Positions 56,645 through 59,134 are shown, counted from the first letter of the stretch. The stretch is 64,000 nucleotides of DNA from Patescibacteria group bacterium (GCA_043817315.1 JBDRGY010000001.1:154550-218549); one strand, 5' to 3'. Notes: generated by a model from the sequence alone, not told the origin. Program-made: numbers and translations.

Positions 56645-56661
56645 CCATCTGTAGATAAAAA

Positions 56662-56700
56662 AGACCCGACTATATAGGTTATGTCGGGTTCTTTGTTTTG
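56662..56700. terminator. Bidirectional intrinsic terminator between the L,D-transpeptidase gene and GC-rich island 2
   Basis: aaaaaGACCCGACtatataggttatGTCGGGTTctttgttttg: 7-8 bp stem with A/T runs on both sides. Confidence 0.65.
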
Positions 56701-56711
56701 TGATAGGTGCC

Positions 56712-56945
56712 TTATTGCTTCAGCATCATTCTGGGGCCGCCACCACCGGAAGCACGGTAGCGTCTTCCCCGATGGAAACGATTGGGGTCGCGGGCCCGCT
56801 TGATGGCGTCATCAATTGCAGCCATAACCTTGGGTAAGTCTCTGGCCCCGCGGACAATTCTGGCGAAGTTAGCGCGACGTTGTCGAGCTTCTTCTGGAGT
56901 TGGCTTACGACGAACGGGACTGGATGAACCTTCCTTGTCAGGCAT
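56712..56945 (-). CDS. Island-2 small highly basic protein (77 aa), hypothetical nucleic-acid-binding
   Basis: AGGAGG ribosome-binding site 4 nt before the ATG. Arg/Lys-rich with a Gly-rich tail. RRKPTPEEARQRR motif related to the neighbouring paralogs. Confidence 0.5.
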   Translation of the reverse strand: MPDKEGSSSPVRRKPTPEEARQRRANFARIVRGARDLPKVMAAIDDAIKRARDPNRFHRGRRYRASGGGGPRMMLKQ

Positions 56946-57282
56946 CAGACCTCCTCTTCTTTCTTACTTGACTAAGGTATCGTTGCCAGCTCTCTGGAGG
57001 TGGCGGAGGTTTCTGCCCGATAGCTGCCCAAGCCTCTGTTTCGAATCTTTCTCTTCTCCTTCGTCTCTCGATGGCACGACCATGGGAATGTGAGCAGGGG
57101 TCGATACTGGTCGATCTCTCGATGCTTCTGGCCATGTTAGCCATCTTGGTCATGTCTTCGGCTTTTCTTACTGGATTGATCAGAGGTTCGCCCGGCTGGC
57201 GTTTCCTGCGACAGGCACGTCGAAATTGTAGTAATGCCCTTCTGTCATCCGCCGTCCCATCTACTGCTTTCTTTTTGGCCAT
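56938..57282 (-). CDS. Island-2 small basic protein (114 aa) with poly-Pro tract, hypothetical
   Basis: AAGGAGG ribosome-binding site. MAKKK start like the 68-aa paralog. RRRRRER and PPPPP tracts. Confidence 0.5.
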   Translation of the reverse strand: MAKKKAVDGTADDRRALLQFRRACRRKRQPGEPLINPVRKAEDMTKMANMARSIERSTSIDPCSHSHGRAIERRRRRERFETEAWAAIGQKPPPPPESWQRYLSQVRKKRRSDA

Positions 57283-57294
57283 AGAGCCTCCTTG

Positions 57295-57498
57295 CTAGAG
57301 CATAGAAGGATCGAAACCCATTCCCGGTCTACCCATCAAACAACCAACCATAAAACGCATGTTCATCATCTGAGTGATCAGTCTTTGACTGCGTTCAATC
57401 TCTTGCCTGAGCAGTCGGCAGCTTTCCACTGCCTGTTCGATCTCAGACTTGGTGGGATAGCGGTAAGGCTTAGCTTGTTTCTTTCTTCTCTTAGCCAT
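57295..57498 (-). CDS. Island-2 small basic protein (68 aa), paralog of the 71-aa protein, with Met/Gly-rich C-terminus
   Basis: AGGAGGTAAGG ribosome-binding site plus ATG (MAKRRKKQAKPYRYPTKSEIEQ). The longer ORF-track start would overlap the upstream gene by 73 bp. Confidence 0.55.
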   Translation of the reverse strand: MAKRRKKQAKPYRYPTKSEIEQAVESCRLLRQEIERSQRLITQMMNMRFMVGCLMGRPGMGFDPSML

Positions 57499-57515
57499 GA
57501 CCTTACCTCCTAGGT

Positions 57516-57731
57516 CTAGACATCGCATCTGCAGTCTAGGGTTTTGGCTGTTACTGTCTCGGCGTGACGTACTGCTTTTTCGACCCACTCCAACGTCTTC
57601 AGATCCTTCTCGATCTGTCTGCGGGTGGGAAGGACGTAGGGTGGACGGTTCTTAATCGCTCTAATTATCCGTTCCCTTCTACTTGGCTTTCGGCGTTCCA
57701 AGACCCTTTCCCACATGAGTCTTATCTTCAT
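57516..57731 (-). CDS. Island-2 small basic protein (71 aa), paralog of the 68-aa protein
   Basis: RKPSRRERIIRAIKNRPPYVLPTRRQIEKDL versus KRRKKQAKPYRYPTKSEIEQAVE: shared P-Y-x-x-P-T-[KR]-x-[EQ]-I-E pattern. First gene after the internal promoter. Confidence 0.5.
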   Translation of the reverse strand: MKIRLMWERVLERRKPSRRERIIRAIKNRPPYVLPTRRQIEKDLKTLEWVEKAVRHAETVTAKTLDCRCDV

Positions 57732-57820
57732 GACAAACCCCCTGGGTTTTGCACCTTATCTTGTGAAAGATCTTCTTGTCCTCCGCTCCTAACTTAGCAA
57801 AAAAATGTGTTTATTGTCAA

Positions 57821-57853
57821 ATAAAAAACCTGTCAAGCTGAGCTCGACAGGTT
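57821..57853 (-). terminator. Intrinsic terminator inside island 2 (after the 174-aa gene, minus strand)
   Basis: Minus strand reads GAACCTGTCgagctcagcttGACAGGTTttttatttg: perfect 8-bp stem followed by a T-run. A TTGACA-18-TAAGTT promoter-like element follows. Confidence 0.65.
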
Positions 57854-57861
57854 CAAAGAGC

Positions 57862-58386
57862 TTAGACACCGGGAATGTGGAGGCCGTCTGAAGTGGAGAG
57901 GCGGCCAGTGAACCAGTTGGCACTACGTTCCAGGTGTAGGTGGATGGCTCGACCGTCGGCCTGGACTGTGATCTTGGCCTGTCCACTCTTGGCCTCGATC
58001 AGTTGTTGCAGAGCTGGACCTAGATCAGACAAACCGCAGGTGAATTCACCGCCATCCAGGTTGACTACCACTTCGCCGCTTTTCTGCTGGCGGGCCAGAG
58101 CATTACGCAGTAGCTGCATTGACTGGACCAGCTGAAAGCTGACTTCGGGGTAGTCGACAGTGACTTGCTCTCTTACTGCCCGCATGACTATGTCCAGGGC
58201 GTTGAACAGCGGCGCGCTGACTACAGATCCCTGAGTCGGTGAGATACAACTGACAGTAGAGAGGAATCGGCCGAGAGCAGCATGGGAACCGTCAGTTCCG
58301 TTGTGCTTGCCTTCTTCGTACAGCTCTATAGCCCTCCGCAGATGTATTGCTGCTTCTTCTGGATCGAACAGAACGACTTGGCTCAT
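57862..58386 (-). CDS. Island-2 soluble protein (174 aa), hypothetical
   Basis: AAGGAG ribosome-binding site. No TM helix and no recognisable motif. GC-rich codon usage. Confidence 0.5.
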   Translation of the reverse strand: MSQVVLFDPEEAAIHLRRAIELYEEGKHNGTDGSHAALGRFLSTVSCISPTQGSVVSAPLFNALDIVMRAVREQVTVDYPEVSFQLVQSMQLLRNALARQQKSGEVVVNLDGGEFTCGLSDLGPALQQLIEAKSGQAKITVQADGRAIHLHLERSANWFTGRLSTSDGLHIPGV

Positions 58387-58634
58387 GTCAGCTCCTTAAA
58401 AGGATTGTGTTTGAAGAGTTCCGAGGGATCGTAATCCGGCTCGAAGAAGTAGGCCCTGATGACGATAGCCACGAAGATAATGGCTACCAATTGGATAAAG
58501 GCCAATGACATCGGCCAGAGCGCTCCAGGGTGTATGGCGTACTGATCATGAATCCAGTGAGCCGAGACGATAGCGGCCCAGAAGAAGACCAACACTACGG
58601 GAACACAGAGCAGATTCCTAACTCTTTCAGACAT
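58383..58634 (-). CDS. Island-2 small two-TM membrane protein (83 aa from the ATG)
   Basis: GAGGGGAGG ribosome-binding site. Two hydrophobic helices. ATGA overlap with the downstream gene. The ORF-track start is a TTG 27 nt upstream. Confidence 0.5.
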   Translation of the reverse strand: MSERVRNLLCVPVVLVFFWAAIVSAHWIHDQYAIHPGALWPMSLAFIQLVAIIFVAIVIRAYFFEPDYDPSELFKHNPFKELT

Positions 58635-59022
58635 GAACAATACCTCCCCTCGACTCTTCAATAGCTACCGACATCCCTTGACGGCTGTAATCTATGACCG
58701 TCTGTTTCGGAGTTAGGCCGGAGCCAAGGCAAGTCAGGGGTAGCTGATAGTCTGGATGCTCATCACAGATGAATTGCCAGCGGCCGCCCAAACTTACCAA
58801 TTGATAATCGTTACTGGTTCGGAGCTCTACCATTTGACTACAGTGAGGGCACTTTCCGTAGGCCGGAGCAGGCATGAAGTAGTAGTGAAGAGTGTAGAAT
58901 AGCAGACAGCCAAGCATTGAGACCAGGGTGGTGGCTTCAAGCAACGGGGGGATCAAGATCATGGTCAGGATACAAAAGACGAAAAAAGCAGAGATAAGAC
59001 TTGTTGCCCTTTCTGGTGACAT
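58627..59022 (-). CDS. Island-2 membrane protein (131 aa) with two TM helices and a Cys-rich (CPHC...C..C) zinc-ribbon-like tail
   Basis: AAGGAGG ribosome-binding site 6 nt before the ATG. First gene of the island operon. Confidence 0.5.
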   Translation of the reverse strand: MSPERATSLISAFFVFCILTMILIPPLLEATTLVSMLGCLLFYTLHYYFMPAPAYGKCPHCSQMVELRTSNDYQLVSLGGRWQFICDEHPDYQLPLTCLGSGLTPKQTVIDYSRQGMSVAIEESRGGIVHV

Positions 59023-59084
59023 CTCTACCTCCTTATTTGCCGGGTGAAATGAACGTTATATTAATTTATTTTAAAAAGGAATAA

Positions 59085-59113
59085 TTGTCAAATTTAATAT
59101 TTTAGGGTATCAT
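59085..59113 (+). promoter_or_regulatory. Sigma-70-like promoter for secDF (TTGTCA-17-TATCAT)
   Basis: Seen directly in the AT-rich spacer between island 2 and secD. Confidence 0.45.
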
Positions 59114-59134
59114 AATTATTGCAATCATATATAT

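Follow-up and report, generated by a model that had tools for sequence, protein, structure and literature searches.

The 64,000-nt window analysed here is a chromosome segment of a Patescibacteria (candidate phyla radiation, CPR) group bacterium (GCA_043817315.1, JBDRGY010000001.1:154550-218549). Its subject is the 2,490-bp gap between the stop codon of an FG-GAP/YkuD L,D-transpeptidase gene (LDT; 55145-56644, plus strand) and the start codon of secD (59135, plus strand), which is filled by seven small genes on the minus strand, called i1 to i7 in the order of transcription. The block is an insertion of foreign composition whose genes carry the marks of purifying selection; an internal segment of it has been replaced between strains, and homologues are absent from the collections searched. 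It is read here, with a probability of about 0.6, as a horizontally acquired, recombining islet of ORFans (genes without recognizable relatives), consisting of a small membrane/zinc-ribbon module and an array of arginine-rich small proteins, and possibly phage-derived or related to genetic conflict. The core of a preliminary description of the same DNA, which had proposed a horizontally acquired, self-contained cassette, is thereby kept. The genes are as follows.

58627-59022, minus strand: i1, 131 aa, an N-terminal hydrophobic hairpin and then a CPHC...CxxH zinc-ribbon-like domain
58383-58634, minus strand: i2, 83 aa, two hydrophobic helices and an acidic C-terminal tail
57862-58386, minus strand: i3, 174 aa, soluble, isoelectric point (pI) 5.6
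57516-57731, minus strand: i4, 71 aa, pI 10.6
57295-57498, minus strand: i5, 67 aa, pI 10.4
56938-57282, minus strand: i6, 114 aa, pI 11.3
56712-56945, minus strand: i7, 77 aa, pI 11.8, with 16 Arg

In windowed profiles of GC content, codon usage and tetranucleotides, the islet is the strongest compositional outlier of the window. GC content in 1-kb bins ranges from 0.36 to 0.49, with a mean of ~0.40; in 400-nt windows it is 0.49-0.54 over 56.4-59.0 kb and is back down to 0.36-0.39 at 58.8-59.4 kb, within ~200 nt of the i1 start codon, so that the compositional edge near 59.0 kb is sharp. GC content at third codon positions (GC3) is 0.49-0.63 in the island genes vs. 0.41 +/- 0.05 in 57 host ORFs, and the preferred codons are CTG/CTC, GTC and AAG, as against TTA, GTT and AAA in the host. 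The tetranucleotide distance of the island is 0.42 (median 0.20, standard deviation 0.04), which ranks first in a 2.4-kb scan of the window. Since codon choice is distinct and GC3 is shifted, the high GC content is more than a by-product of arginine-rich proteins. The 30-40% GC first estimated by hand for the flanks was too low, the measured figure being ~40-44%.

The genes on either side belong to the core set: mraY-like, murD, ftsW, murG, murC, murB, secA, LDT, secD, secF and a sigma-like gene. Relatives were sought by a scan of SecD across 185,579 species' genomes, in which no relative closer than 60% SecD identity was found; those with matching synteny have 56-60% identity over most of the length of the protein, and hence are distant. 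The order LDT-secD-secF is kept in five related loci (L001, L002, L007, L012 and L037), with secA just upstream in three of them (L002, L007 and L037) and the sigma-like gene downstream in all four that are long enough. In L001, L002, L012 and L037 the gap between LDT and secD is just 66-113 bp, so that the two genes nearly adjoin and the block is absent. Because this site is so short in four of the five relatives, the block is taken to be an insertion, and the sharp compositional shift, the empty site and the core-gene flanks together bear out the horizontal acquisition first proposed.

The fifth locus, L007 (57% SecD identity), has an unrelated insert of 1.6 kb at the LDT-secD site (L007 4371-5993). 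In it, a membrane ORF of 150 aa accompanies a pair of small, mutually similar basic ORFs of 71 and 80 aa; its ORFs are on the same strand as secD, i.e., in the opposite orientation to the island genes, and its GC content of 0.38 is near that of its locus (0.35). Given this other cargo, the site seems prone to carrying cargo. No paralogues of the island proteins were found elsewhere in the window or in the loci of 80 relatives, and a literature search on Patescibacteria genomic islands returned nothing relevant.

A second version of the islet, haplotype B, was found by exact-sequence lookups on short contigs of the ENA assemblies ERZ24794679 and ERZ24794676 and of the Logan assemblies of ERR13325277 and ERR13325278, which carry near-identical or allelic proteins. 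The run accessions gave no result in a literature search. Contig L081 (2,382 bp) extends from inside secD through i6, L084 and L085 from the stop codon of i3 into i7, and L086 from an 85-aa ORF through i7 and the terminator behind it into the 3' end of LDT, so that together they cover both junctions of the island with the chromosome. Independent assemblies thus reproduce both junctions, which answers the worry, raised with the first description, that the block might be an assembly chimera. Identity of haplotype B to the window was as follows along the region, and two features were located by the comparison.

secD 5' end and spacer: 279/279
i1 to i4: 1,488/1,502 (99.1%)
i5: nucleotide identity 0.70
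i6: nucleotide identity 0.65
First half of i7: nucleotide identity 0.79
56819 to 56571: 100%
56820-57520, no strand: hypervariable segment, swapped between haplotypes, ~0.7 kb here and ~1.3 kb in haplotype B
56930-56958, minus strand: repeated gene-junction motif AGGAGGTCTGATGCCTGACAAGGAA, which unites a Shine-Dalgarno (SD) sequence with the stop codon of the preceding gene and the start of the following one

On either side of the diverged segment the haplotypes are 0.987-1.00 identical. The drop in identity is only a few bases from the i4 stop codon (57520), i4 itself differing by one substitution, and at the other end all 33 differences in i7 lie in 56929-56820, so that the C-terminal half of this protein is identical and the N-terminal half variable. 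The junction motif is the same in both haplotypes, with the first mismatch at 56929, and the terminator at 56662-56700 is 100% identical in L086. Haplotype B is longer by ~580 bp, with two more ORFs between i6 and i7, one basic (85 aa) and one acidic (75 aa). Judged by these identities, the middle segment diverged long before its flanks did. On this sequence evidence recombination with a diverged copy of the same cassette must have brought the segment in, and such an import in turn implies an unsampled pool of such cassettes.

A motif of the form AGGAGGTCT(G/A)(A/G)TGCCTGA(C/A)AAG is found at three junctions, i6/i7 in the window and, in haplotype B, those between the 85-aa ORF and the next gene and between the 75-aa ORF and the counterpart of i7. 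The C-terminus of i6 in the window (RKKRRSDA) is nearer to that of the 85-aa ORF of haplotype B (RKRRSSA) than to that of its i6, a pattern that may be the expected trace of deletion or duplication between repeated junctions.

Two irregularities were seen in contig L084. At 1153-1475 the haplotype B gene after the 85-aa ORF looks frameshifted: a frame with a GTG start reads MPEKKKAGTSGSADPKGS... and stops after 39 codons, and the annotated 75-aa acidic ORF runs on in another frame as ...LTPEIRARIAKDREELAELDAAIDAAEIL. One indel would fuse the two frames to ~109 aa with the N-terminal pattern of the family; at ~3x coverage the frameshift may be genuine, mark a pseudogene or stem from a sequencing error. 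In the same contig the final 33 nt (1632-1664), outside its 100%-identical overlap with L086, read AILRLGDAPRFNV in place of AIKRARDPNRF, which could be a contig-end artefact, again at ~3x coverage, or a third variant.

The differences between the haplotypes also served as a check on coding. Comparison of i5 with its 64-aa allele gives 64% amino acid identity, with proportions of synonymous and non-synonymous differences (pS and pN) of 0.71 and 0.24 and a dN/dS of ~0.13; i6 and its 107-aa allele are 66% identical, with pS 0.77 and pN 0.21. At codon positions 1, 2 and 3, respectively, there are 22, 11 and 32 differences in i5, 29, 21 and 58 in i6, and 6, 7 and 20 in i7, and a 9-nt indel in i5 preserves the reading frame. 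The little-diverged i1 and i2 together show seven synonymous changes and one non-synonymous (four and one in i1, three and none in i2). Since synonymous sites are saturated while pN is low, the ORFs are both translated and constrained; by this measure the genes are real and under purifying selection.

Beyond haplotype B, relatives of these proteins are essentially lacking. A word-indexed search of 5.8e9 proteins with i3, i1 and a profile of i6 returned only the queries themselves and the haplotype B alleles. An exhaustive phmmer search with i3 (1.84e9 representatives) gave one weak match (E 5e-5), to a 1652-aa Big/CarboxypepD_reg repeat protein, but its score is summed over repeats and was judged unreliable. 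Overall, eight of the nine ORFs of the two haplotypes are without relatives among up to ~15 billion predicted proteins, and i3 has this single, probably repeat-inflated match. None of the seven proteins gave a match above threshold in Pfam, PHROGs, PADLOC or NCBIfam, in agreement with the earlier remark that no domain could be named, and the same was true in Pfam and PHROGs of four haplotype B proteins (the two extra ORFs and the i5 and i6 alleles). In PADLOC the sole match of any island protein was that of i3 to a CARF model (E 0.012, 13.5 bits). A PDB sequence search found nothing for i3, i6 and i7, and Foldseek against BFVD nothing below E 0.067.

A likeness of i1 to transcription activator-like effectors (TALE) was considered and rejected. 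E-values of ~1e-25 against TALE entries in the PDB come from one weak match summed over many identical repeats, and no individual stretch passes threshold. The match covers residues 75-122 (58657-58800), ~1.4 repeats, at 38% identity and 26.9 bits, with the i1 stretch LPLTCLGSGLTPKQTVIDYSRQG aligned to the TALE sequence LPVLCQAHGLTPEQVVAIASxxGG; unlike TALE proteins, i1 has no array but a single unit, which overlaps the second zinc knuckle. There was no match of i1 to the Pfam TAL_effector family, and the resemblance was judged to be chance.

Several points weigh against a recombining, horizontally acquired islet, or against parts of that reading. The relatives are distant, so that an insertion is not strictly separable from an ancestral presence followed by several losses, although the composition speaks against losses. 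Neither an integrase nor a transposase domain was found in the island or the flanking genes, as had been noted at first for mobility genes, and there is no tRNA in the window. Repeats are only 11-12 nt long, at chance level; the single one that spans the edges, an 11-mer at 56724 and 59176, is about what is expected by chance in 3 kb and was rejected as an att-like repeat. Coverage of haplotype B is 1.7-3.2x, which makes its single base calls uncertain, including the apparent frameshift. Between the haplotypes i3 has four non-synonymous differences and one synonymous, numbers too small to interpret. The best PHROG match (E 0.003) is to a family of unknown function and not significant, and no phage hallmark gene is present. 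Searches of IMG/VR and JGI metagenomes, blastn against phages and plasmids, and tblastn against phages (a collection of 50,697 phage records) were all empty. Phage origin and a conflict role are thus suggested by analogy only, with no significant hits to phage or defence models.

By hydropathy, i1 (segment 4-45) and i2 (segments 4-29 and 36-67) each have two hydrophobic segments, in keeping with their earlier description as proteins with two transmembrane helices. The knuckle residues of i1 are CPHC at 58-61 and CDEH at 86-89. In its AF2 (AlphaFold2) single-sequence model, with a predicted local distance difference test score (pLDDT) of 59, helix 3-49 is confident and the beta hairpins of the soluble domain, at 54-67 and 74-85, have a pLDDT below 50. 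The corresponding model of i3, four helices and a small beta-rich domain at low confidence (pLDDT 62), matched generic helical bundles only.

The four proteins from i4 to i7 are strongly basic, as described at first, with a pI of 10.4-11.8 and arginine well above lysine, and their maximum 19-residue hydropathy is 0.73 or less. In i5 a basic N-terminus is followed by the motif KPYxxPTKxEI and a Met/Gly-rich C-terminus, a tail that is largely kept, with few substitutions, in an allele just 64% identical overall; i6 has a conserved core, AEDMTK.AN.ARSIERSTSIDP, and a KPPPP run. Short motifs recur among these proteins: KPYxxPT(K/R)x(E/Q)I in i4 and i5, (A/S)RSI(E/A)RS...(S/I)(I/M)DP in i6 and the 85-aa ORF, AAID(D/P) in i7 and the ORF that follows the 85-aa one, and a shared (S/A)(I/A)ID(P/D). 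They lend weak support to the idea of clear paralogs put forward in the preliminary description; i4 and i5 have only ~22 columns in common and pairwise hhalign comparison of them is weak (P 1.3e-3, probability 18%); for i6 and the 85-aa ORF it gives P 3e-4. From these motifs, an origin of the small basic proteins by tandem duplication is plausible.

All seven ORFs first described are present, each with an ATG start, as had been claimed, and a purine-rich SD (AGGAGG, GGAGG or AAGGAG, with GGGGG for i4 and GGAGG for i7). Some details needed correction. The length of i5 is 67 aa instead of 68; the zinc-binding pattern of i1, previously written CPHC...C..C, is in fact CPHC...C-x2-H (C58, C61, C86 and H89); and of the ATGA overlaps only the 4-nt one between i2 and i3 holds, i1/i2 and i6/i7 overlapping by 8 nt. 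In the NCBI annotation of the source metagenome-assembled genome (MAG; on a 321,535-bp contig) six of the proteins are listed as hypothetical, ABIB97_01100-01125, with i5 as ABIB97_01110 and i3 as ABIB97_01115. None of the six tags goes to i4, which was not found in this annotation and whose exact sequence is absent from the protein collection searched; it is called as a 71-aa gene in ENA contig L081. The following candidate transcription signals accompany the genes.

56662-56700, both strands: bidirectional intrinsic terminator at the 3' edge of the island, a CCCGAC...GTCGGG hairpin with a T run on either strand
57802-57822, minus strand: -35-like box ATTTGACAATAA directly after the internal terminator, a possible second promoter
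57826-57854, minus strand: internal intrinsic terminator between i3 and i4, a 13-pair stem with a 3-nt loop, then TTTTATTT
59063-59091, minus strand: promoter-like site for i1-i3, TTGACA-17-TAAATT (promoter scan, 10/12 matches)
59085-59113, plus strand: secD promoter-like site (promoter scan, 10/12 matches)

Both hairpins, already called terminators in the preliminary description, fold better than shuffled sequence: the internal one at -19.3 kcal/mol (z -4.8), and the region of the other (56650-56712) with z scores of -3.4 (minus strand) and -2.5 (plus strand). The hairpin at 56662-56700 probably terminates both the island and the LDT transcripts. For the internal promoter, the proposed TTGACA is present (57815-57820) but an acceptable -10 was not found by the promoter scan; the surrounding 57802-57822 is a 21-nt direct repeat, 76% identical, of the -35 region of the upstream promoter (59073-59093). 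The spacer at 59023-59134 is AT-rich as stated, but in place of being the cassette's own it resembles host intergenic DNA and looks like a host spacer shared with the secD promoter. The -35 boxes of the island and secD promoter-like sites stand back to back in it, and it is identical in haplotype B (112/112). Autonomous transcription of the island is thus suggested by sequence signals only, a predicted promoter-like box and hairpin terminators. Rfam covariance models gave no match at the gathering score in the whole window and none at E <= 1 in 56400-59300, and a structured RNA or self-splicing intron was set aside as the cause of the GC-rich block.

If these observations are put together, foreign DNA of ~51% GC would have entered the short LDT-secD spacer of a Patescibacteria genome of ~40% GC, probably by recombination rather than by an integrase of its own, and recombination with diverged versions of this cassette would still be remodelling the islet. 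The first three genes, translationally coupled and downstream of the promoter-like site in the host spacer, would supply a two-helix membrane protein with a cytoplasmic zinc ribbon (i1), a second two-helix membrane protein (i2) and a soluble partner of 174 aa (i3), which most likely form one membrane-associated complex. After the internal terminator, i4-i7 encode arginine-rich proteins of 67-114 aa with a basic N-terminus and then a helix; they are probably old tandem duplicates and, judged by charge only, most likely bind nucleic acid. Within this array i5-i7 is the replaceable segment, with two saturated alleles and a two-gene difference in otherwise near-identical strains, and the repeated junction motif at gene boundaries may provide the sequence through which the array grows and shrinks.

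Flexible genomic islets or hypervariable regions are known between the core genes of streamlined bacteria, as in the hypervariable regions of SAR11 and the genomic islands of Prochlorococcus. Here, as there, strain-specific cargo, mostly ORFans, of deviating composition occupies a fixed spot between core genes, has no integrase of its own and is replaced by recombination through identical flanks, and L007 has other cargo at the same spot. Unlike those islands, this one is very small (2.4 kb, seven genes) and in a Patescibacteria host, and the unit replaced is an internal segment of 0.7-1.3 kb, not the whole islet. We know of no described counterpart, among islets of this type, to a membrane/zinc-ribbon module joined to an array of basic proteins. 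With its tightly packed genes, the abrupt breakpoints of its mosaic, and its ORFans for small basic and membrane proteins, the islet is by analogy most like phage or mobile-element cargo. Its functional role, in a tentative guess, could be in conflict or regulation, such as exclusion, immunity or anti-defence.

Among more specific explanations, it is possible, with a probability well short of even, that the islet is a remnant or cargo of an unknown Patescibacteria virus, i.e., the leftover of a small virus or satellite once integrated here, or else a moron-like cassette that one left behind, with basic proteins that bind the genome or regulate and membrane proteins for exclusion or lysis. Tight packing of overlapping genes on one strand would fit, as would mosaic replacement and the two-gene indel between haplotypes, and all products are ORFans, which are common among phage genes. 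Phage morons and the mosaic "immunity region" of lambdoid phages offer known parallels: like them, the islet is a self-contained cassette with promoter and terminator signals, and it has a highly diverged block of small, mostly basic proteins within near-identical flanks, with at least one breakpoint at a gene boundary. Unlike them, it has no surrounding prophage, repressor, Cro or helix-turn-helix domain. Capsid, terminase, replication and integrase genes are lacking, as are significant PHROG matches, att-like repeats, and matches in the phage records, IMG/VR and the BFVD structure library, and at 2.4 kb the islet is smaller than autonomous viruses of any known kind. It is doubtful that the islet is a compact defence, toxin-antitoxin or addiction module. 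It would have a membrane/zinc-ribbon sensor-effector, with the variable basic proteins and the acidic partner in haplotype B as specificity factor, toxin or antitoxin, and the alleles would be held by balancing selection. Ancient alleles are indeed retained in otherwise near-identical strains, translational coupling links the small membrane proteins with a soluble partner, the basic 85-aa ORF of haplotype B adjoins the acidic 75-aa one, and the spot is variable, with other cargo in L007. However, the CARF-like match of i3 is the best in PADLOC and not significant, nuclease, NTPase, kinase and other enzymatic domains are absent, and a dN/dS of ~0.13 or less in the variable segment indicates purifying rather than ongoing diversifying selection.

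Much more improbable is a leaderless bacteriocin or RiPP-like cluster (ribosomally synthesized and post-translationally modified peptides), in which tandem cationic products would be exported or modified and i1 and i2 would be immunity proteins. Leaderless bacteriocin loci do consist of tandem cationic peptides and small membrane immunity proteins, and the islet is like them in its adjacent small cationic products without a leader, beside two small two-helix membrane proteins; the one match of this kind, lachnocin to i4, is below threshold (E 0.056, 13 bits vs. a cutoff of 40). Known leaderless bacteriocins are however shorter and amphipathic, while the island products (67-114 aa) are two to three times longer, arginine-rich and hydrophilic, being neither amphipathic nor hydrophobic. 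Radical SAM, YcaO, lanthipeptide, protease and ABC-transporter genes are absent from the island and its flanks, and the precursor-peptide idea voiced at first finds no support, as no modifying enzyme, protease or transporter lies in or beside the island. The largely conserved Met/Gly/Cys-rich tail of i5 is no less consistent with a segment that folds or interacts than with a core peptide. That the block is no functional unit at all, being an assembly chimera or decaying junk with accidental ORFs, is the least probable explanation and already largely refuted. The proteins have no homologues anywhere searched, i4 is missing from the NCBI annotation and the internal promoter has no -10; but ENA and Logan assemblies from other runs contain both junctions as well as the interior, the haplotype differences are mostly synonymous or at third positions in i1, i2, i5, i6 and i7, the indel in i5 is in frame, and seven SD-ATG starts tile one strand.

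Two further features of the window were noted. SecD (59135-60802, plus strand) contains, within its periplasmic region, an inserted PpiC-type peptidyl-prolyl isomerase domain at residues ~142-235 (Rotamase_3, E 5.8e-21); tblastn matches of SecD to its nearest relatives are contiguous across the insert, and the fusion seems common to the lineage. Another antisense islet rich in GC lies at 45472-46134 (minus strand), flanked by two plus-strand genes, the mraY-like gene and murD, and resembles the main island in style; its GC content is 0.55-0.56 and its GC3 0.69. Its single ORF (220 aa) has an N-terminal hydrophobic segment and a C-terminal hydrophobic anchor, and a bacterial SH3_3 match below threshold (E 3e-5, 24.5 bits vs. 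a cutoff of 27). Exact lookups of this protein, and likewise of i3 and LDT, yielded no record. The presence of this islet suggests that acquisition of this kind recurs in the genome.

To our knowledge, gene gain in the tiny genomes of Patescibacteria is little documented at the level of single events. Read as a horizontally acquired, recombining islet, this locus would be a clean gain, dated by divergence, of a foreign cassette in the 70-110 bp spacer of a conserved secA-LDT-secDF block, followed by a swap of an internal segment for a diverged allele; each breakpoint of the swap is placed to a precision of a few bases. What makes the locus interesting is that both the gain and the exchange of alleles can be mapped cleanly in a CPR genome, and that the searches made turned up no relatives at all: the island genes are new protein families under selection, and a pool of related cassettes, none of them in the public collections searched, would be circulating among these organisms. 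Purifying selection, the lack of relatives and two saturated alleles in near-identical strains also allow a bolder and rather unlikely reading. The islet would then represent, as its first sample, an undescribed family of compact Patescibacteria modules exchanged by recombination, in which a membrane-anchored zinc-ribbon complex (i1-i3) acts together with a replaceable array of arginine-rich nucleic-acid binders (i4-i7), the ancient alleles of which set specificity, e.g., in an immunity, exclusion or addiction system, or else it would be the footprint of an unknown virus lineage. Without a conflict-related or viral role this would be one more ORFan islet, and such islets are common; with one, it would give a handle on the nearly unknown biology of mobile elements in Patescibacteria.

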